From: a virus
Lineage: Duplodnaviria > Heunggongvirae > Uroviricota > Caudoviricetes
Virus record (IMG/VR): IMGVR_UViG_2872198387_000003
Length of the DNA: 30,004 nt
Strand: one strand, 5' to 3'
Part shown: positions 10,259 to 29,525 of the stretch, one piece after another
Position numbering within the stretch: the first letter of the stretch is position 1
Layout of the letters: the number at the start of each line of letters is the position of its first letter
Translations under genes and position numbers: made by a program
The notes under the pieces: generated by a model
Told to the model about the DNA's origin: nothing
Database searches by the model: none
Seen by the model: only the letters and a program-made list of their open reading frames with translations

Positions 10259-11675
10259 ATGAACACCGATAAACAAGTTTACCCACTGTATTACGAAGCA
10301 AAAAATGACAAAGTAAGAAAACGTCTCGGTATTAAAGGCGGTTTTTACTGGGCTGAAGCGAAAAAATTATCCATTGCCATCTCCCGTGGTGCTGTTGCGA
10401 TTGACGATGCAGGCTACGATGAAGATGACTTTAAAAAACCTGTTCGCGTCAATTTGCCCGTTGTTGATGACCTCCCGCCAGAAGGCGTATTTGATACGGA
10501 ATTCTGCAACCGTTACGAAAAAGGCGGGGAAGATGGCATCACAATGGTATTTATCGCATCTTCTCCCTCTGTTCAGGACAAACCGGCCAGCACTGACAAT
10601 ACCAACGTCAACGGCGAAGACATGACAGAAATTGAGGAGAACATGCTCCTGCCAGTTTCCGGTCAGGAACTGCCCATTCGCTGGCTTGCGCAACACGGCA
10701 GCGAAAAACCAGTAACGCACGTTTCACGCGACGAACTCCAGGCATTACACATTGCTCGGGATGAAGAACTACCAGCTGTTACTGCCCTGGCTGTTTCCCA
10801 CAAAACCAGCCTGCTCGATCCGCTGGAAATTCGCGATCTCCACAAACTGGTGCGTGATACTGACAGAGTTTTCCCTAATCCAGGCAATTCAAGCCTGGGG
10901 CTGATGACTGCTTTTTTCGAAGCATACATGGACGCAGACTACACCGATCGCGGTCTGCTGACAAAAGAGTGGATGAAAGGAAATCGTGTTTCACGCATCA
11001 CGCGCACGGCTTCCGGCGCTAATGCTGGCGGCGGGAACCTCACCGATCGCGGCGAAGGTTTCGTTCACGATCTGACGTCACTGGCGCGCGACGTAGCCAC
11101 TGGCGTACTGGCTCGTTCAATGGACGTGGACATTTATAACCTTCATCCGGCACACGCTAAACGTGTCGAGGAAATTATCGCTGAAAATAAACCGCCCTTT
11201 TCTGTTTTCCGCGACAAATTCATCACCATGCCTGGCGGGATGGATTATTCCCGCGCCATCGTGGTTGCGTCAGTGAAAGAAGCACCGATTGGTATCGAGG
11301 TCATCCCCGCTCACGTCACTGAATATCTGAACAAGGTACTGACTGAAACCGATCATGCCAACCCTGATCCGGAAATCGTGGATATTGCCTGCGGTCGCTC
11401 CTCTGCCCCGATGCCGCAACGTGTAACAGAAGAAGGAAAACAGGATGATGAAGAAAAAACGCAGCCATCTGGCGCAATGGCAGATGAACAGGCAACGGCT
11501 GAAACAATGGAACCGGATGCAACTGAACATCATCAGAACACGCAGCCGCTGGATGCTCAGTCACAGGTAAATTCTGTTGATGAGAAATATCAGGAACTAC
11601 GGGCAGAACTCCATGAAGCCCGGAAAAACATTCCGCCCAAAAATCCTGTCGATGCAGACAAATTACTGGCTGCCT
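10259..11675 (+). pseudogene. recE: exodeoxyribonuclease VIII (RecE), N-terminal 470 aa only
   Basis: ...[45 protein letters not shown]...[17 protein letters not shown] matches remembered Rac RecE. The C-terminal nuclease domain and recT are absent. Reading stops in IS600-derived sequence at 11676. Confidence 0.85.
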
Positions 11676-11687
11676 TGAGGTAGCCTG
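11676..11687 (+). other. 12-bp fragment of the IS600 orfA-proximal terminus
   Basis: TGAGGTAGCCTG equals the first 12 nt of the IS600 end seen intact at 28305. It directly abuts the opposite terminus of IS600 copy 2. Confidence 0.6.
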
Positions 11688-11730
11688 TGAGGTGTACTGG
11701 CAATAGCGGACACTACCATTTGTTCTTTTT

Positions 11731-12549
11731 TTAAGCAGCCATCTGATGATATTTTTCCCTGAAGGCTGCCGGGGAGATATTCCCCAGACGAGAGTGACGA
11801 CGCTGACGATTGTAGAAAATCTCAATGTATTCCCGTATTACTGAGGTGGCTTCATCCCGGTTATTAAAACGATAGTGGCTCAGGCTCTCATTTTTCAGCG
11901 TTCCCCAGAAGCTTTCCATCGGAGCGTTGTCGTAACAGTTACCTTTACGCGACATTGATGTTTTCAGACCAGACTGCTCCTGTATGACCCGGTAATCGTA
12001 TGCGCAGTACTGTGAACCTCGATCAGAGTGGTGGATTAGCCCGGCAGGTGGGCGCTGGCTCCTGAGCGCCATAAACAGGGCTTTACCTGTCAGCTCTTTT
12101 GTCATGCGCTCTCCCATGGCGTAGCCGACAATTTCACACGTATAAACATCTTTGATGCCAGCGAGGTACAACCATCCCTCCTGTGTGGCAACATACGTCA
12201 GGTCCGCCACCCAGACCTGATTTGGTGCTGTAGGAGCGAACGTCTGGTTCAGCAGATTTGGCGCAACTGGCAGATTGTGGTTCGGGTTCGTAGTCGCTCT
12301 GAACTTGCGTTTCTGCTTACAGCGTAGCCTCAGCTCCTTACGAAGACGTGCCAGTCGGTCACGACCAACGATGATGCCATTCTCTGCCAGCTCCGTCTGG
12401 AGCCGCCGGGTTCCATATGTTTCGCGAGTGCGGATATGTGCCACCTTAATCTCCAGTTTTAGCCGCTCATCACTTTGTTTTCTGTCTGAGGGTTCATGCT
12501 GTACCCAGTTGTAATAACCGCTCCTGGATACACCAAATACCTGACACAT
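11731..12549 (-). CDS. IS600 OrfB
   Basis: 272-aa ORF with one substitution relative to the other copies (EATSVIREY versus EAISVIREY). Confidence 0.9.
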   Translation of the reverse strand: MCQVFGVSRSGYYNWVQHEPSDRKQSDERLKLEIKVAHIRTRETYGTRRLQTELAENGIIVGRDRLARLRKELRLRCKQKRKFRATTNPNHNLPVAPNLLNQTFAPTAPNQVWVADLTYVATQEGWLYLAGIKDVYTCEIVGYAMGERMTKELTGKALFMALRSQRPPAGLIHHSDRGSQYCAYDYRVIQEQSGLKTSMSRKGNCYDNAPMESFWGTLKNESLSHYRFNNRDEATSVIREYIEIFYNRQRRHSRLGNISPAAFREKYHQMAA

Positions 12550-12584
12550 CGCTTCAATGGGAAATTGTTGTCGCCATTGTTCGA

Positions 12585-12887
12585 TTAACGCGTATTTTTC
12601 AGCGACTCCTGTGCAAAATACGCTGTTGCTTTTTTTAATATATCTCGCTCAAGGCGAGCTTCATTTAACGCCTTACGCAGTTGCAGAATTTCAGATTCCA
12701 GTTCAGCCACCGTGCGGGAACCAGGAGTACCGAGCCCTTTTCTGGCGGCGGTAACCCATTGTCCTAAAGTGCCTTCAGGAAGAGATAATCGGGAAGCGCC
12801 TTCACTGATCGAAAGTTGATTTTCAAGAACCGTTCTGACAGCTTCGGCTTTGAACTCTTTAGAGTAACGTTGGGTTTTTCTGCTCAT
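12585..12887 (-). CDS. IS600 OrfA
   Basis: Identical 100-aa ORF. Confidence 0.9.
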   Translation of the reverse strand: MSRKTQRYSKEFKAEAVRTVLENQLSISEGASRLSLPEGTLGQWVTAARKGLGTPGSRTVAELESEILQLRKALNEARLERDILKKATAYFAQESLKNTR

Positions 12888-12960
12888 TATTAGCTCCTTC
12901 TGATGCCATTCTATTTCAGGAAGGAGTGTCCGTTAAACTCAGGCTACCTCAGTATTCCCT

Positions 12961-13100
12961 TAGAGTTAATCTTTAATTGGTCTTTAATTAAATCTTTTAT
13001 TTAATACTTAAAGTTAATCTCTAATTGTGTCTTTAAGTTAACTTTAAGTAATACTATAAGTTAATCTTTAATTGTGTCTTTAAGTTAACTTTAAGTTAAG
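12961..13100. repeat. three tandem ~48-bp AT-rich units containing CTTAAAG-type motifs
   Basis: Units lie at 12961-13008 (diverged), 13009-13056 and 13057-13100: TAAGTTAATCTTTAATTGTGTCTTTAAGTTAACTTTAAGT.... On the minus strand they are preceded by the palindrome GTCCCTACAGGGGC (13099-13112). Confidence 0.85.
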
Positions 13101-13293
13101 CCCCTGTAGGGACTAGAGACCATAATTAAGATGATTGTGTCTTATTGCTATTCACTTATCGACTGACCCAGAGCACACAGGAAGCATTCACTTTAAGTAG
13201 AACGCTTGGTGTCTGTAATTGGTCATCCCGCCCCTGAAAGGATGCGATAAGTTACGGTTAGTTGTCCTAGAAGAGAAAACTTTTTGTGTCCCT

Positions 13294-13316
13294 TCTCCCT
13301 ATAGTGAGTCGTATTA
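13294..13316 (-). promoter_or_regulatory. T7 RNA polymerase class III-type promoter (23/23 consensus)
   Basis: The minus strand reads TAATACGACTCACTATAGGGAGA. The +1 G is at 13299, and transcription would run toward 12952. Confidence 0.85.
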
Positions 13317-13404
13317 ATTATCCCTTGATAAGTAGAGAAAACTATGAGTCAAAAACATGACCACACAGGTCTGTAGTAAGTGTCATCCTAGACTATGGTC
13401 TCCT

Positions 13405-13607
13405 CTAGGTCTCCTTATAAACATCAGCCATCACATTGACCAGCCTATCAACCTCGACCTCTTTAGCATAACGGTCGTACGTAATAGACCCTGAACTATG
13501 CCCCATGATCGCCTGTGCATACGCCAACTCGACCCCATGTTGTTTTAACTGGGTCGCAACTGTATGTCTAAACGAGTGAAACGCTATGTAAGTATCCCGC
13601 ATAATCG
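13405..13607 (-). pseudogene. tyrosine integrase, C-terminal fragment
   Basis: ...YIAFHSFRHTVATQLKQHGVELAYAQAIMGHSSGSITYDRYAKEVE... carries the HxxR, GH and catalytic Y motifs. The upstream boundary depends on the unresolved IS end and could reach about 13645. Confidence 0.8.
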
Positions 13608-13665
13608 TGCCATTCACATTTAGAGATCCTCCGGCATACTCAATCTGCCAATTAAGGAGATCGCT

Positions 13666-13932
13666 ATGCGTAAAGCCCGTTTTACTGAGCATCAGATCAT
13701 CGCCGTGATTAAGTCGGTTGAAGCCGGACGAACTGTTAAAGATGTCTGCCGGGAGGCCGGTATCTCTGAAGCCACCTACTACAACTGGAAGTCCAGATAC
13801 GGTGGCATGGAGGCTTCTGATATTAAAAAGATTAAAGAGCTTGAGGACGAGAACCGCCGTCTCAAACAGATGTTTGCCGACCTGAGCCTGGAGAACCGGG
13901 CGCTGAAGGACGTTATCGAAAAAAAGCTTTAA
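13666..13932 (+). CDS. IS3-family OrfA (HTH + leucine zipper)
   Basis: 88 aa MRKARFTEHQIIAVIKSVEAGRTVKDVCREAGISEATYYNWKSRYGG... Confidence 0.85.
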   Translation: MRKARFTEHQIIAVIKSVEAGRTVKDVCREAGISEATYYNWKSRYGGMEASDIKKIKELEDENRRLKQMFADLSLENRALKDVIEKKL

Positions 13933-14777
13933 AACCAGCCTGTAAGCGTGAGCTGGTCACTCATCTGATAACGACATTCGGACTCAGTATCCGTCAGGCC
14001 TGCCGGAGTCTGAACCTGAGCAGAACGGTTTACCATTACCGCCCGGATACCACGCGTGATGAACCCGTTATTGTCGCGTTGCAGGCAGTGGCAGAGCGAT
14101 ACCCACGATACGGTTTTCCGAAACTCTTCCAGGTTCTGCGGCGACAGGGATACCCATGGAATCACAAAAGGATCCACCGTATTTACTGTCTGCTGAAGCT
14201 GAATTTTCGCCGTAAGGGCAAACAACGGTTGCCGGTGCGTAATCCCTCGCCACTGGCCACGTCGGAAGCGCTGAACCAGAGTTGGTCTGTCGATTTTATG
14301 CATGATGCCCTGGTCTGTGGCCGTCGTTTTCGTACGTTCAATGTCGTTGATGACTTTAACCGTGAGGCGTTGTCGATTGAAATCGACCTGAATCTGCCAG
14401 CTCTACGCGTGGTCCGTGTACTCGACAGGATCGCGGCAAACCGTGGCTATCCGGTCAAGCTGCGCATGGATAATGGTCCGGAATTTATCTCCCTGACACT
14501 GGCTGAATGGGCAGAGAAACATGCAGTAAAACTGGAGTTTATCCAGCCGGGTAAGCCGACGCAGAACGCTTTCATTGAGCGCTTTAACCGGACATACCGT
14601 ACAGAAATACTCGATTTTTATCTGTTCAGAACGCTGAATGAAGTGCGGGAAATCACGGAAAAATGGTTGTCAGAATATAACTGTGAACGCCCGCATGAAT
14701 CACTGAACAATATGACGCCAGAGGAATATCGACAACACCATTATTTGGCCGGGATCTCAAAAAATGCCTGGAACTAA
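13926..14777 (+). CDS. IS3-family OrfB (DDE), expressed as an OrfAB fusion by -1 frameshift
   Basis: The frame is open from about 13917: ...KPACKRELVTHLITTFGLSIRQACRSL...WSVDFMHD...RMDNGPEF...NAFIERFN.... The first ATG in this frame is at 14079. Confidence 0.8.
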   Translation, partial: ALKPACKRELVTHLITTFGLSIRQACRSLNLSRTVYHYRPDTTRDEPVIVALQAVAERYPRYGFPKLFQVLRRQGYPWNHKRIHRIYCLLKLNFRRKGKQRLPVRNPSPLATSEALNQSWSVDFMHDALVCGRRFRTFNVVDDFNREALSIEIDLNLPALRVVRVLDRIAANRGYPVKLRMDNGPEFISLTLAEWAEKHAVKLEFIQPGKPTQNAFIERFNRTYRTEILDFYLFRTLNEVREITEKWLSEYNCERPHESLNNMTPEEYRQHHYLAGISKNAWN

Positions 14778-14827
14778 AACGGGTCTATTTACAGCTAAGC
14801 CGCTACGGTCTACGAGGACTTTAGGCA

Positions 14828-15035
14828 ACAACGTCCGATTAAACCATTTACTCACCTGCTCACCGTAACCGTTCTTCATGAGACGCAGACCATCGAACAC
14901 CATAGCGTCATCACCGTCAGCGCCTCTACGGGTCTCTACAAGCGCCATAAAGTCAGCCAATATAAAACCATAGGCCCCATCGACCAGAGGCACACAGCGG
15001 TCACTATGAGCGTTCTTGATGCTCTTACCGGGTAG
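14828..15035 (-). pseudogene. tyrosine integrase, middle fragment
   Basis: LPGKSIKNAHSDRCVPLVDGAYGFILADFMALVE...VSKWFNRTLL(PKVLVDRSG). This is the typical ...R.VPL segment after the catalytic Arg. It is cut by IS911 at 15036. Confidence 0.7.
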
Positions 15036-15107
15036 TGAAGTGGCACACTGAATTTGGCCACCTGAACAGAGGTGATATGCTCACCTCAGAACAACACAGG
15101 TGCTCCA

Positions 15108-16276
<1,169 letters not shown>

Positions 16277-16284
16277 CCACTTCA

Positions 16285-16357
16285 AGTAGTAGACGCCGTT
16301 ACGCTGGTAGAGATAGTAGACTGCTGGAAGTTTGTGACTACTGGATAGCTGAATCAT
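16285..16357 (-). pseudogene. tyrosine integrase, N-terminal 24 codons
   Basis: MIQLSSSHKLPAVYYLYQRNGVYY is an integrase-type N-terminus (...NGVYY(FR)). It starts 115 nt downstream of tRNA-Gly on the same strand and is cut by IS911. Confidence 0.55.
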
Positions 16358-16471
16358 ATGTCTGTATGCCCTGAGAGGGTTACACAGTGGGTTACAGTAA
16401 GTAACTCTGCAAGGAGGCTTAAAGCCGTATCCCTTAGGATTCAGTAGGTTGGAGTACTTTAAGAAAGGTCA

Positions 16472-16546
<75 letters not shown>

Positions 16547-16549
16547 ATA

Positions 16550-16625
<76 letters not shown>

Positions 16626-16627
16626 GC

Positions 16628-16704
16628 TGGCCCACCACCGAGGACTCGAACCTCGCACCGTCAACTTAGAAGGTTGATGCTCTATCCGGATGAGCTAGTG
16701 GTGG
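16628..16704 (-). tRNA. tRNA-Arg (anticodon UCU)
   Basis: CCACCACTAGCTCATCCGGATAGAGCATCAACCTTCTAAGTTGACGGTGCGAGGTTCGAGTCCTCGGTGGTGGGCCA. All stems are perfect. The first base pair is an unusual C1-G72. Confidence 0.85.
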
Positions 16705-16705
16705 T

Positions 16706-16782
16706 TGGTGGCCCTTGCTGGACTTGAACCAGCGACCTGGCGATTATGAGTCGCTCGCTCTGACCAACTGAGCTAAAGGGCC
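16706..16782 (-). tRNA. tRNA-Ile2-like (anticodon CAU, ileX/ileZ type)
   Basis: GGCCCTTTAGCTCAGTTGGTCAGAGCGAGCGACTCATAATCGCCAGGTCGCTGGTTCAAGTCCAGCAAGGGCCACCA. The T-arm and anticodon arm closely resemble remembered ileX rather than the elongator Met tRNA. Confidence 0.85.
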
Positions 16783-17543: not shown

Positions 17544-18362
17544 TTAAGCAGCCATCTGATGATATTTTTCCCTGAAGGCTGCCGGGGAGATATTCCCCAG
17601 ACGAGAGTGACGACGCTGACGATTGTAGAAAATCTCAATGTATTCCCGTATTACTGAGATGGCTTCATCCCGGTTATTAAAACGATAGTGGCTCAGGCTC
17701 TCATTTTTCAGCGTTCCCCAGAAGCTTTCCATCGGAGCGTTGTCGTAACAGTTACCTTTACGCGACATTGATGTTTTCAGACCAGACTGCTCCTGTATGA
17801 CCCGGTAATCGTATGCGCAGTACTGTGAACCTCGATCAGAGTGGTGGATTAGCCCGGCAGGTGGGCGCTGGCTCCTGAGCGCCATAAACAGGGCTTTACC
17901 TGTCAGCTCTTTTGTCATGCGCTCTCCCATGGCGTAGCCGACAATTTCACACGTATAAACATCTTTGATGCCAGCGAGGTACAACCATCCCTCCTGTGTG
18001 GCAACATACGTCAGGTCCGCCACCCAGACCTGATTTGGTGCTGTAGGAGCGAACGTCTGGTTCAGCAGATTTGGCGCAACTGGCAGATTGTGGTTCGGGT
18101 TCGTAGTCGCTCTGAACTTGCGTTTCTGCTTACAGCGTAGCCTTAGCTCCTTACGAAGACGTGCCAGTCGGTCACGACCAACGATGATGCCATTCTCTGC
18201 CAGCTCCGTCTGGAGCCGCCGGGTTCCATATGTTTCGCGAGTGCGGATATGTGCCACCTTAATCTCCAGTTTTAGCCGCTCATCACTTTGTTTTCTGTCT
18301 GAGGGTTCATGCTGTACCCAGTTGTAATAACCGCTCCTGGATACACCAAATACCTGACACAT
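17544..18362 (-). CDS. IS600 OrfB
   Basis: Identical 272-aa ORF. Confidence 0.9.
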   Translation of the reverse strand: MCQVFGVSRSGYYNWVQHEPSDRKQSDERLKLEIKVAHIRTRETYGTRRLQTELAENGIIVGRDRLARLRKELRLRCKQKRKFRATTNPNHNLPVAPNLLNQTFAPTAPNQVWVADLTYVATQEGWLYLAGIKDVYTCEIVGYAMGERMTKELTGKALFMALRSQRPPAGLIHHSDRGSQYCAYDYRVIQEQSGLKTSMSRKGNCYDNAPMESFWGTLKNESLSHYRFNNRDEAISVIREYIEIFYNRQRRHSRLGNISPAAFREKYHQMAA

Positions 18363-18397
18363 CGCTTCAATGGGAAATTGTTGTCGCCATTGTTCGA

Positions 18398-18700
18398 TTA
18401 ACGCGTATTTTTCAGCGACTCCTGTGCAAAATACGCTGTTGCTTTTTTTAATATATCTCGCTCAAGGCGAGCTTCATTTAACGCCTTACGCAGTTGCAGA
18501 ATTTCAGATTCCAGTTCAGCCACCGTGCGGGAACCAGGAGTACCGAGCCCTTTTCTGGCGGCGGTAACCCATTGTCCTAAAGTGCCTTCAGGAAGAGATA
18601 ATCGGGAAGCGCCTTCACTGATCGAAAGTTGATTTTCAAGAACCGTTCTGACAGCTTCGGCTTTGAACTCTTTAGAGTAACGTTGGGTTTTTCTGCTCAT
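18398..18700 (-). CDS. IS600 OrfA
   Basis: Identical 100-aa ORF. Confidence 0.9.
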   Translation of the reverse strand: MSRKTQRYSKEFKAEAVRTVLENQLSISEGASRLSLPEGTLGQWVTAARKGLGTPGSRTVAELESEILQLRKALNEARLERDILKKATAYFAQESLKNTR

Positions 18701-28368: not shown

Positions 28369-28671
28369 ATGAGCAGAAAAACCCAACGTTACTCTAAAGA
28401 GTTCAAAGCCGAAGCTGTCAGAACGGTTCTTGAAAATCAACTTTCGATCAGTGAAGGCGCTTCCCGATTATCCCTTCCTGAAGGCACTTTAGGACAATGG
28501 GTTACCGCCGCCAGAAAAGGGCTCGGTACTCCTGGTTCCCGCACGGTGGCTGAACTGGAATCTGAAATTCTGCAACTGCGTAAGGCGTTAAATGAAGCTC
28601 GCCTTGAGCGAGATATATTAAAAAAAGCAACAGCGTATTTTGCACAGGAGTCGCTGAAAAATACGCGTTAA
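28369..28671 (+). CDS. IS600 OrfA
   Basis: Identical 100-aa product, with synonymous differences at the DNA level. Confidence 0.9.
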   Translation: MSRKTQRYSKEFKAEAVRTVLENQLSISEGASRLSLPEGTLGQWVTAARKGLGTPGSRTVAELESEILQLRKALNEARLERDILKKATAYFAQESLKNTR

Positions 28672-28706
28672 TCGAACAATGGCGACAACAATTTCCTATT
28701 GAAGCG

Positions 28707-29525
28707 ATGTGTCAGGTATTTGGTGTATCCAGGAGCGGTTATTACAACTGGGTACAGCATGAACCCTCAGACAGAAAACAAAGTGATGAGCGGCTAAAAC
28801 TGGAGATTAAGGTGGCACATATCCGCACTCGCGAAACATATGGAACCCGGCGGCTCCAGACGGAGCTGGCAGAGAATGGCATCATCGTTGGTCGTGACCG
28901 ACTGGCACGTCTTCGTAAGGAGCTGAGGCTACGCTGTAAGCAGAAACGCAAGTTCAGAGCGACTACGAACCCGAACCACAATCTGCCAGTTGCGCCAAAT
29001 CTGCTGAACCAGACGTTCGCTCCTACAGCACCAAATCAGGTCTGGGTGGCGGACCTGACGTATGTTGCCACACAGGAGGGATGGTTGTACCTCGCTGGCA
29101 TCAAAGATGTTTATACGTGTGAAATTGTCGGCTACGCCATGGGAGAGCGCATGACAAAAGAGCTGACAGGTAAAGCCCTGTTTATGGCGCTCAGGAGCCA
29201 GCGCCCACCTGCCGGGCTAATCCACCACTCTGATCGAGGTTCACAGTACTGCGCATACGATTACCGGGTCATACAGGAGCAGTCTGGTCTGAAAACATCA
29301 ATGTCGCGTAAAGGTAACTGTTACGACAACGCTCCGATGGAAAGCTTCTGGGGAACGCTGAAAAATGAGAGCCTGAGCCACTATCGTTTTAATAACCGGG
29401 ATGAAGCCATCTCAGTAATACGGGAATACATTGAGATTTTCTACAATCGTCAGCGTCGTCACTCTCGTCTGGGGAATATCTCCCCGGCAGCCTTCAGGGA
29501 AAAATATCATCAGATGGCTGCTTAA
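28707..29525 (+). CDS. IS600 OrfB
   Basis: Identical 272-aa ORF. Confidence 0.9.
   Translation: MCQVFGVSRSGYYNWVQHEPSDRKQSDERLKLEIKVAHIRTRETYGTRRLQTELAENGIIVGRDRLARLRKELRLRCKQKRKFRATTNPNHNLPVAPNLLNQTFAPTAPNQVWVADLTYVATQEGWLYLAGIKDVYTCEIVGYAMGERMTKELTGKALFMALRSQRPPAGLIHHSDRGSQYCAYDYRVIQEQSGLKTSMSRKGNCYDNAPMESFWGTLKNESLSHYRFNNRDEAISVIREYIEIFYNRQRRHSRLGNISPAAFREKYHQMAA

Follow-up and report, generated by a model that had tools for sequence, protein, structure and literature searches.

The locus considered here lies at positions 12952-13404 of a 30,004-nucleotide stretch of the IMG/VR virus record IMGVR_UViG_2872198387_000003 (Caudoviricetes), and that whole stretch is referred to below as the window. 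On the minus strand, the locus directly follows the end of a tyrosine integrase gene and harbors an exact promoter of the T7 RNA polymerase, a leader, a palindrome and an AT-rich repeat block, after which it is cut off by the insertion sequence (IS) IS600. Judged by its alignments to complete genomes, it is the dead left third of an island, 4.2-6.5 kb in size, whose integration target is tRNA-Gly. Intact islands of this kind are found in many genera, and they probably constitute an Enterobacterales-wide family of satellites of virulent T7-like phages (Studiervirinae), a reading that rests on comparative sequence evidence: integration at tRNA-Gly, exact phage promoters, a mimic of the phage concatemer junction and a single gene orientation.

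The promoter TAATACGACTCACTATAGGGAGA (-17 to +6) shows no mismatch to the T7 class III promoter over all 23 positions, as claimed in a preliminary description of this DNA. It is unique in the window even at a tolerance of three mismatches, a search that returned no site in any of 100 dinucleotide shuffles. In a short-word BLAST against phage ends, 26 bases at the site (AATTAATACGACTCACTATAGGGAGA) were identical to T7 phiOR, and a BLAST of the whole 453-bp module against phages returned a single match, 59 bp around the promoter in Salmonella phage Vi06. The promoter was said to start 88 bp past the stop of a tyrosine integrase; distance and strand are right, while the open reading frame (ORF) concerned, 13405-13692 on the minus strand, represents no more than a C-terminal integrase fragment. 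The roughly 340 bp downstream (12952-13293), described as free of ORFs of 60 or more residues, contain none of even 40 residues. The palindrome reported there, GTCCCTACAGGGGC (CCCT-AC-AGGG), is present and proved to be imperfect. The tandem organization of the following repeats was recovered by Tandem Repeats Finder (12964-13096: period 47, 2.8 copies, 87% matches, with an alternative period of 11-12 bp), and the GC content of the block is 18%, as against 49% for the whole window. The truncation by IS600 was likewise recognized correctly, as was the location of its ORFs on the promoter strand, and a T7-type polymerase starting at the window promoter would read straight into this element.

Complete islands at tRNA-Gly

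The preliminary description had proposed that the locus is the remnant of a mobile element and that uninterrupted relatives should be sought. Intact islands were indeed found, for example in E. coli FT130 and NCTC10973, and the locus matches part of them. In FT130 (L001), the homologous stretch is included in a 4,276-bp element that extends from the 3' end of a tRNA-Gly gene (glyU) to a 23-bp direct repeat. From left to right, it comprises a 543-aa integrase gene, 13-bp tandem repeats, a pair of exact T7 promoters, then leader, palindrome and AT-rich repeats, followed by a hairpin, a variant promoter-like site, a KilA-N gene, a small membrane-protein ORF and attR. Of 5426 complete E. coli genomes, 91 contain the 453-bp module, always in the chromosome and with the same island around it, and 385 have the integrase family. 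In one-genome-per-species data, the integrase alignment extended the family to 14 other genera with 20 further loci, from Klebsiella, Citrobacter, Buttiauxella, Shimwellia, Enterobacter, Proteus, Pectobacterium, Lonsdalea, Edaphovirga, Morganella, Rouxiella, Serratia and Limnobaculum, as well as from one unclassified Enterobacteriaceae isolate, one E. coli and one Shigella flexneri genome. The islands of K. pneumoniae ATCC 13883 (L008) and E. coli ESY003 (L006) have the same four promoters in identical order and spacing, which suggests recent transfer between genera.

Islands with both direct repeats (17-23 bp, at tRNA-Gly) measure 4182-6447 bp, and all of their listed genes are co-oriented. 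In the 6.3-6.5 kb type, the integrase is followed by a DUF4145 gene (PD-T7-4/RAZR), about 1 kb of noncoding DNA, a variable gene for a KilA-N, Rha or Ant-like protein, a conserved 60-aa gene, a DUF6971 gene, then another conserved gene, 330-390 aa long, and attR. The window copy belongs to a shorter type of 4.2-4.4 kb that is devoid of the 60-aa, DUF6971 and 330-390 aa genes. RAZR is absent from two of the three examples of this type (FT130 and NCTC10973) and kept in MDK9L1 (L004); in the window, the gap from integrase stop to promoter leaves no space for it.

Among more than 100 related loci, none has a gene for an RNA polymerase, a DNA polymerase, a terminase or a tail protein, and no portal match was found among the listed ORFs of intact relatives. 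The idea of an integrative T7-like element, along with the predicted layout in which early genes or an RNA polymerase would follow tRNA-Gly, integrase, promoter and repeats, was therefore abandoned. Scans of island ORFs with Pfam, PHROG, NCBIfam and PADLOC yielded none of the genes typical of phage-inducible chromosomal islands (PICIs), namely AlpA- or Stl-type regulators, primase-replicase and small terminase, nor the portal and head-tail connectors of capsid-forming PICIs (cf-PICIs), and the cargo proteins matched no PHROG family. Virion-type genes are limited to, at most, those for a HK97-fold protein and the DUF6971 protein. As is general among satellites, the islands have their own tyrosine integrase and att sites and lack a full set of virion and replication genes.

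The features of the window copy are collected in Table 1. The 3' end of its tRNA gene, GGGTTCGATTCCC...GCCCGCTCCA, is followed by the island left end TGACCTTTCTTA, as at glyU of FT130, and the same boundary is found in the IMG/VR prophage contig L034. The window island sits in the tRNA-Gly(UCC) gene of a tRNA cluster rather than in glyU, the two tRNAs having a common 3' end. This cluster, Met(CAT)-Arg(TCT)-Thr(TGT)-Gly(TCC), is of the lambdoid-prophage type (window 16472-16782, minus strand; L034 3461-3771), and L034 carries a sister island at the equivalent cluster. Such clusters are an alternative integration site, and the islands can therefore reside within prophages.

The left arm and tRNA (16379-16546) are 80% identical to L001 17931-18097. 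The integrase gene is broken by two IS elements and a deletion: about 1.24 kb of its 5' part (L001 18098-19341) are absent, a loss associated with IS911, and an IS3-family element interrupts the remainder. The alignments that flank the latter overlap by 4 bp, which suggests a target duplication. One E. coli locus (H173) with the same IS3-family element inside an integrase gene was considered as a relative and rejected, its integrase being that of an unrelated prophage. To the right of 12952, the hairpin, second promoter, KilA-N gene, small ORF, junction mimic and attR have been lost. The window copy must be dead, since its integrase consists of fragments only and IS600 has removed everything beyond that point. 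The far side of IS600 abuts a truncated RecE (exodeoxyribonuclease VIII, residues 1-474 of 877; 10259-11683, plus strand). Through IS600, the remnant is thus fused to DNA of a Rac-type prophage; a deletion or rearrangement is implied, and not a simple insertion. IS3-family elements crowd the window, with at least four pairs of IS600-like ORFs (533-1689, 11688-12951, 17544-18700 and 28369-29525), as would suit a Shigella-like genome.

Table 1. Island features and neighboring elements in the window (positions are those of the window).
Feature	Positions	Strand	Basis or remark
tRNA-Gly(UCC), integration target (attL side)	16472-16546	-	ARAGORN; last gene of a prophage-type Met-Arg-Thr-Gly cluster
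Island left arm, between attL and integrase gene	16379-16471	-	Alignment to L001
IS911 insertion	15028-16287		98.7-99% identity to annotated IS911; IS3-family ORFs
Internal tyrosine integrase fragment	14794-15035	-	95.9% identical to L001 19342-19583
IS3-family element, 1207 bp, inside integrase gene	13587-14793		Separates the two integrase fragments
C-terminal integrase fragment, stop 13405-13407	13405-13586	-	13410-13586 98.9% identical to L001 19580-19756; matches to tyrosine recombinase C-termini
Integrase-promoter spacer	13317-13404	-	Single copies of units tandemly arrayed in relatives
T7 class III-type promoter	13294-13316	-	Exact 23/23; directed away from integrase
Leader block TAACCGTAAC...GCATCC-TTTCAGGGGC-GGGATG, hairpin	13221-13260	-	In 16/16 island loci checked
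Imperfect palindrome	13100-13113	-	Directly precedes AT-rich repeats
AT-rich repeat block, TTAACTTAAAGA-like units	12964-13099	-	Superperiod 47 bp; 18% GC
IS600	11688-12951	-	99.8% identity over 1264 bp to annotated IS600; ORFs on promoter strand

Phage promoters, noncoding module and junction mimic

One to four promoters for phage RNA polymerases, all in one orientation, were found per intact island in the noncoding stretch of every island examined; they are mostly grouped in two clusters separated by about 550 bp and are directed at the cargo without exception. The core CACTA[TA]AGG occurs 41 times on the gene strand of 20 islands, never on the opposite strand and never in 186 kb of flanking DNA. 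Similarly, in 80 metagenome loci, which had been picked solely by homology to the 330-aa capsid-like protein described below, it was found 129 times on the gene strand and not once on the other, next to more than 30 different specificity regions. Specificity regions of the islands correspond to real phage promoters, each of which is present 3-9 times per phage genome of 39-41 kb: ACTAAACTATCACTATAGGGAGA represents the K1F and Kayfunavirus type, AATTAGGTAGCACTATAGGGAGA that of KP32-like Przondovirus, and AATTAGGGCACACTATAGGGAGA that of K11-like phages (Przondovirus). Several types may be combined in a single island, as in one type, present in K. pneumoniae ATCC 13883 and in many E. coli, which harbors two K11-type, one T7 and one KP32-type site. 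Variant cores, CACTATTGGGAGA and CACTAACGGGAGA, are found in Pectobacterium and Morganella islands. In 16 related loci, 16 of 17 T7-type sites are exact at 23 of 23 positions in spite of diverged surroundings, which points to selection on the sites themselves.

A second element that the islands appear to have in common with T7-like phages is a mimic of the concatemer junction. The reference end of the T7 group was defined as a conserved pre-repeat sequence (CCTTTAAGAATTTACCACAAAAATCTGAG-type), then TCTCAYAGT, then a C-run with CATAG. In every complete island with a junction match, the mimic lies about 200-280 bp before attR and aligns with the left cut site of the phage; in intact islands this is about 1.5 kb to the right of the promoter module. 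The T7 junction reads CCTTTAAAATATACCATAAAAATCTGAGTGACTA|TCTCACAGTG...GTTCCCCCATAGGGGG, and its counterpart in the FT130 island CATTTAAAATTTCCCACAAAAATCTCAGCGTCTA|TCTAATAGTA...CATTCCCCCATATACC. The strongest matches are 26 of 27 positions between T3 and the K. pneumoniae island (E 5e-7 in 484 kb) and 18 of 18 between T7 and the metagenome circle described below, while a K1F-type block, GATGAGTTTTGAC, occupies the same position in eight other islands. Over 80 nt, alignments to the cognate phage type gave z = 6-8; the non-cognate values for K1F versus T7/T3/K11 were 1.6-6 overall and 2.4-5 for most islands, and the Proteus junction scored similarly against T3 and K1F. In 1.28 Mb, the junction motif was found 57 times on the gene strand and never on the opposite one. 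In the Pectobacterium carotovorum island L013 there are two junction-like motifs, at 10759 and 12916, about 2.2 kb apart.

The type of junction goes together with the class of promoter. In 22 loci a K1F-type junction is accompanied by K1F-class promoters only, and in 18 loci a T7/T3-type junction by T7, K11 or KP32-class promoters only, so that none of the 40 loci is discordant. This co-variation fits the prediction of helper mimicry. A packaging signal matched to the helper phage is thus present at the level of sequence in intact islands and missing from the window copy.

Between the promoter and the cargo, the noncoding module has its own conserved architecture. The stems of the leader hairpin vary between islands and are still complementary (CATCC/GGATG, TCTCC/GGAGA, TTCCC/GGGAA, TTTCC/GGAAA and TGCGA/TCGCA), a covariation that was judged by eye, the MAFFT alignment having lost the register of the stem. 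An AT-rich trough 200-380 bp downstream of the promoter was present in all nine islands computed. Rfam returned no credible match for the noncoding modules of L001 and L014. The preliminary description had likened the CTTAAAG-type repeats to T7-group genome ends. This was reduced to a resemblance of motifs, because short-word BLAST of the modules against the ends of T7, T3, K11 and K1F matched nothing except the promoters; the actual junction mimic lies further to the right. At the motif level, AAAGATTAAYTTA in the AT-rich block resembles the sequence directly after T7 phiOL.

In the origins of T7, both the primary phi1.1A/B and the secondary phiOL and phiOR, an AT-rich stretch lies downstream of a single phage promoter or of two in tandem, and the island module has the same plan. 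It differs by a conserved leader of 190 nt with a hairpin between promoter and AT-rich block, and no detectable homology extends beyond the promoter. By this analogy, the module formed by promoter, leader and AT-rich block might serve as a promoter-dependent origin of the island and as its induction switch; we propose this role tentatively, its origin activity being a prediction, with the AT-rich repeats as the part that would be unwound.

Other parts of the noncoding DNA also stand out. After the AT-rich repeats of FT130, a hairpin, GGTGATGATATTTATAACAATCAATCACC (L001 20535-20570), resembles CTCTAAGAATGGTGATTATATTGTATTAGTATCACC, found about 100 nt downstream of T7 phiOR (T7 ~39,330-39,360; L003 830-860), a likeness seen by eye and not recovered by BLAST. 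Between integrase and promoter, the same island has two tandem arrays, of GATGACCATAGGC (x12.5) and CCTATGTGGT (x3.8), at L001 19772-19933 and 19956-20004. The arrays differ in copy number, with 12.5 copies in FT130, some two in NCTC10973 and single units in the window. Each array unit contains TGGTC, a recognition pentamer of the T7 primase, on opposite strands in the two arrays; its concentration upstream of the promoter is a consequence of the repeats themselves and was for that reason excluded as evidence. Directly upstream of the first cargo gene, a stretch of about 100 nt, AAGTCATTCTGTYTGCATCCTGTYGCCTGCTGGTCTCCC...GGGGACTTGAGTRGGTCAG, is conserved in every island printed (L001 20870-20985; L006 9360-9476; L007 9190-9302; L014 10215-10321; L022 9970-10067). 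It holds a small hairpin and the motif TTCTGTT, one base off the class II pause signal of T7, ATCTGTT.

Cargo proteins and possible circular forms

The first cargo gene of the islands codes for a variable DNA-binding protein of the KilA-N, Rha or Ant-like type. The conserved 330-aa protein of the larger islands has hypothetical homologs only, one of them labeled DUF4043, and no sequence match in the PDB. An AlphaFold model built from database homologs of the island protein (pLDDT 70) had structural matches only to HK97-fold capsids and encapsulins, with 157 PDB chains at E <= 1e-3 and TM-scores of 0.3-0.45, and to major capsid proteins in BFVD. It is thus proposed, on a model of moderate quality, to be a HK97-fold capsid-like protein. 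Just upstream is the gene of the DUF6971 protein (L006 10325-10735 and homologs, alignment A3), whose C-terminal half is charged and probably helical and whose sole match is an uncharacterized structure, PDB 5EUR; a scaffold-like role would be a guess. The 60-aa family gave no significant PDB match. The capsid-like cargo (protein cluster P0007, 2495 member sequences) is also found, at 91-98% identity, next to an unrelated integrase (~29% identity) and with no tRNA-Gly in metagenome contigs L043-L045, L060, L061, L063, L069 and L080. The cargo module seems to have been swapped between integration modules, and it seems to be common in E. coli.

The gene beside the integrase is PD-T7-4/RAZR (E 1.9e-101), which directly follows or overlaps the integrase gene in 13 of the 22 islands compared. 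That PD-T7-4 often overlaps an integrase gene had been noted by Vassallo et al. (PMC9519451), and RAZR is described as an abortive-infection RNase activated by the T7/T3 portal (PMC13017515). A term search of the latter paper found no mention of integrase, island or satellite, and 'T7 promoter' only in the methods.

Circular forms were looked for among metagenome assemblies. For one relative, whose integrase differs, a 6,487-bp contig (L029) closes to a circle through a terminal overlap of 141 bp; it carries no tRNA. A contig from a second sample, obtained with another assembler (L030), is 100% identical to it and circularly permuted, and a contig from a third sample (L031) spans the junction of L029, with capsid-like gene, junction mimic and integrase. 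Other metagenome contigs of 6.2-6.9 kb were rejected as circles, as they lack terminal overlaps and several of them end at att cores.

The satellite interpretation and its alternatives

How a satellite of this kind would work may be proposed from the arrangement of its parts. The RNA polymerase of an infecting phage would fire the island promoters, a direct induction signal that would also lead to expression of the cargo. The island would then excise and replicate with phage enzymes, the promoter and downstream AT-rich repeats acting as a T7-type origin, and at the junction mimic the helper terminase would cut the excised circle or concatemer for packaging, the predicted cut lying within ...AAAAATCTSAGNNNNTA|TSTAATAG. 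The 4.3-kb type would be packaged as multimers in helper capsids; capsids that include its own HK97-fold protein may serve the 6.4-kb type. After injection into a new cell, the integrase would insert the island into tRNA-Gly. A circle cut at the mimic would give the linear map end, attP, integrase, (RAZR), phage promoters, cargo, in which the genes would all face away from the leading end, as T7 requires for transcription-driven entry of its genome. On balance we favor this account in full, that is, a satellite family widespread in Enterobacterales that senses infection by multi-specificity promoter arrays, replicates from promoter-dependent origins and is packaged through a junction mimic, the larger members building or remodeling capsids with their own HK97-fold protein and carrying RAZR. 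The comparative evidence thereby favors a suggestion of the preliminary description, a satellite dependent on borrowed RNA polymerase and packaging signals of the T7 type.

Several observations weigh against this interpretation. Induction, replication, packaging and transfer of the islands are predictions from sequence, and an origin role for the surviving module is argued by analogy, the module having no detectable homology to phage ends besides its promoter. The bases after the presumed cut, where the intact islands do have the pre-repeat block and the C-run, consistently read TCTAATAG or TGTAATAG instead of TCTCACAG as in the phages, and the right boundary of a terminal repeat was not found in intact islands. 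The 40 loci with matching junctions and promoters share ancestry and hence are not independent events. The low TM-scores of the capsid model limit what can be concluded from it, and the 4.3-kb type, including the window copy, has no capsid gene at all. The circular assembly could also arise from tandem chromosomal copies, and most metagenome contigs of 6.2-6.9 kb have no terminal overlap. Lastly, the K. pneumoniae-type island (L006) had no match in the phage collection and a single match, of 197 bp, in one plasmid, and the IMG/VR matches examined lie within long contigs, at least one of which is a prophage that carries an island.

The islands might alternatively be defense islands, in which the promoters would only sense infection and switch on genes for abortive infection or interference, or would titrate the phage polymerase as decoys, with spread by other routes. 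The presence in many islands of RAZR/PD-T7-4, a proven anti-T7 abortive-infection gene, speaks for this, as does a first cargo gene of the KilA-N, Rha or Ant-like kind, which is common in interference modules, and several promoter specificities per island would suit a broad sensor. However, RAZR is located upstream of the promoters and therefore would not be driven by them while the island is integrated. A purely defensive role also leaves unexplained why the junction mimic co-varies with the promoter type, why a HK97-fold protein is encoded, and how the circular 6.5-kb assembly arises. We thus consider defense as the sole function to be unlikely; the two roles are compatible, and the islands may be both satellites and defense elements.

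Far less probable is a decayed temperate, integrase-bearing T7-like prophage. An integrase beside a tRNA gene, an exact T7 promoter and T7-like end motifs would be expected from it, and temperate T7-like phages exist, LUZ100 being, according to the title of the paper that describes it, a T7-like Pseudomonas phage with temperate features. Nevertheless, between att repeats the intact relatives are complete at 4.2-6.5 kb, and their small gene set recurs across many genera; their listed ORFs contain no match to an RNA polymerase, a DNA polymerase, a terminase, a portal or a tail protein, their cargo belongs to no PHROG family, and single islands combine promoters of several phage genera, which no phage needs. 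As for an artefact, the exact 23-bp promoter is ubiquitous in cloning vectors, and the preliminary description had named vector or synthetic-construct flanks as a result that would speak against it, yet the flanks are island sequence, and contamination or a chimeric assembly has a negligible probability because the 453-bp module recurs in the 91 complete E. coli chromosomes, from many sources, with related loci in other genera.

The satellite interpretation can be set against systems that are already known. T7 is the textbook virulent phage, and we know of no natural satellite of it. In full-text literature searches, no islands with T7-type promoters and no satellite of a T7-like phage were found described, though the literature outside the searchable set may differ. 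One close parallel is artificial. As cited in PMC13236587, Chung and Hinkle (1990) found that T7 replicates, packages and transduces plasmids with a T7 origin, a pac site and a terminal repeat, pac being described elsewhere as PacB plus PacC (PMC9860248). Like the islands, these phagemids combine a T7 RNA polymerase promoter, an AT-rich region and concatemer-junction sequence; in contrast, the islands are natural and integrative, with an integrase and a tRNA-Gly att site, carry cargo, often have promoters for several phage genera and harbor only a short, diverged copy of the junction, and their function is predicted. The gene that encodes RAZR/PD-T7-4, a protein with a zinc finger and a DUF4145 (HEPN) domain (Vassallo 2022; Nature 2026, PMC13017515), is the same in related islands, whereas it is absent from the window and from FT130 and NCTC10973.

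Among natural satellites, PICIs and cf-PICIs are, like these islands, small integrative elements that are thought to depend on helpers, and the HK97-fold capsid-like protein of the larger islands has a parallel in cf-PICIs. The hallmark genes of PICIs are those for AlpA, a Stl-like repressor, a primase-replicase and a small terminase, none of which was recognized among the island ORFs. The islands are half the size of PICIs or less, with strictly virulent T7-like phages as their presumed helpers. Induction is also proposed to differ, a phage RNA polymerase acting directly on a promoter instead of a phage protein causing derepression. The PICI-like element (PLE) of Vibrio cholerae and the phage-inducible chromosomal minimalist islands (PICMIs) of Vibrionaceae are satellites that exploit lytic phages, as proposed here, and PICMIs are reportedly minimal (~6 kb) and packaged as concatemers. 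The genes, integration site and hosts of the islands are, however, unrelated to theirs, and to our knowledge neither PLE nor PICMI uses phage RNA polymerase promoters or mimicry of a T7-type junction. Satellites are thus already known as a kind; the island family and its induction logic would be new.

If the islands are satellites, their phage RNA polymerase promoters would represent a direct, hard-wired sensor of infection, unlike the derepression used by PICIs and P4, and the natural promoter arrays offer a catalogue of more than 30 polymerase specificities. The recently solved RAZR defense protein would then be placed in a mobile element that itself depends on T7-like phages. The idea is open to direct testing in culture-collection strains, including E. 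coli NCTC10973 and NCTC9967 and K. pneumoniae ATCC 13883. The window copy, inert remnant as it is, nevertheless serves as a pointer to the whole island family, which, if the interpretation is true, would show a way in which lytic podophages transfer genes in E. coli, Shigella and Klebsiella, with relevance to phage therapy based on T7-like phages.

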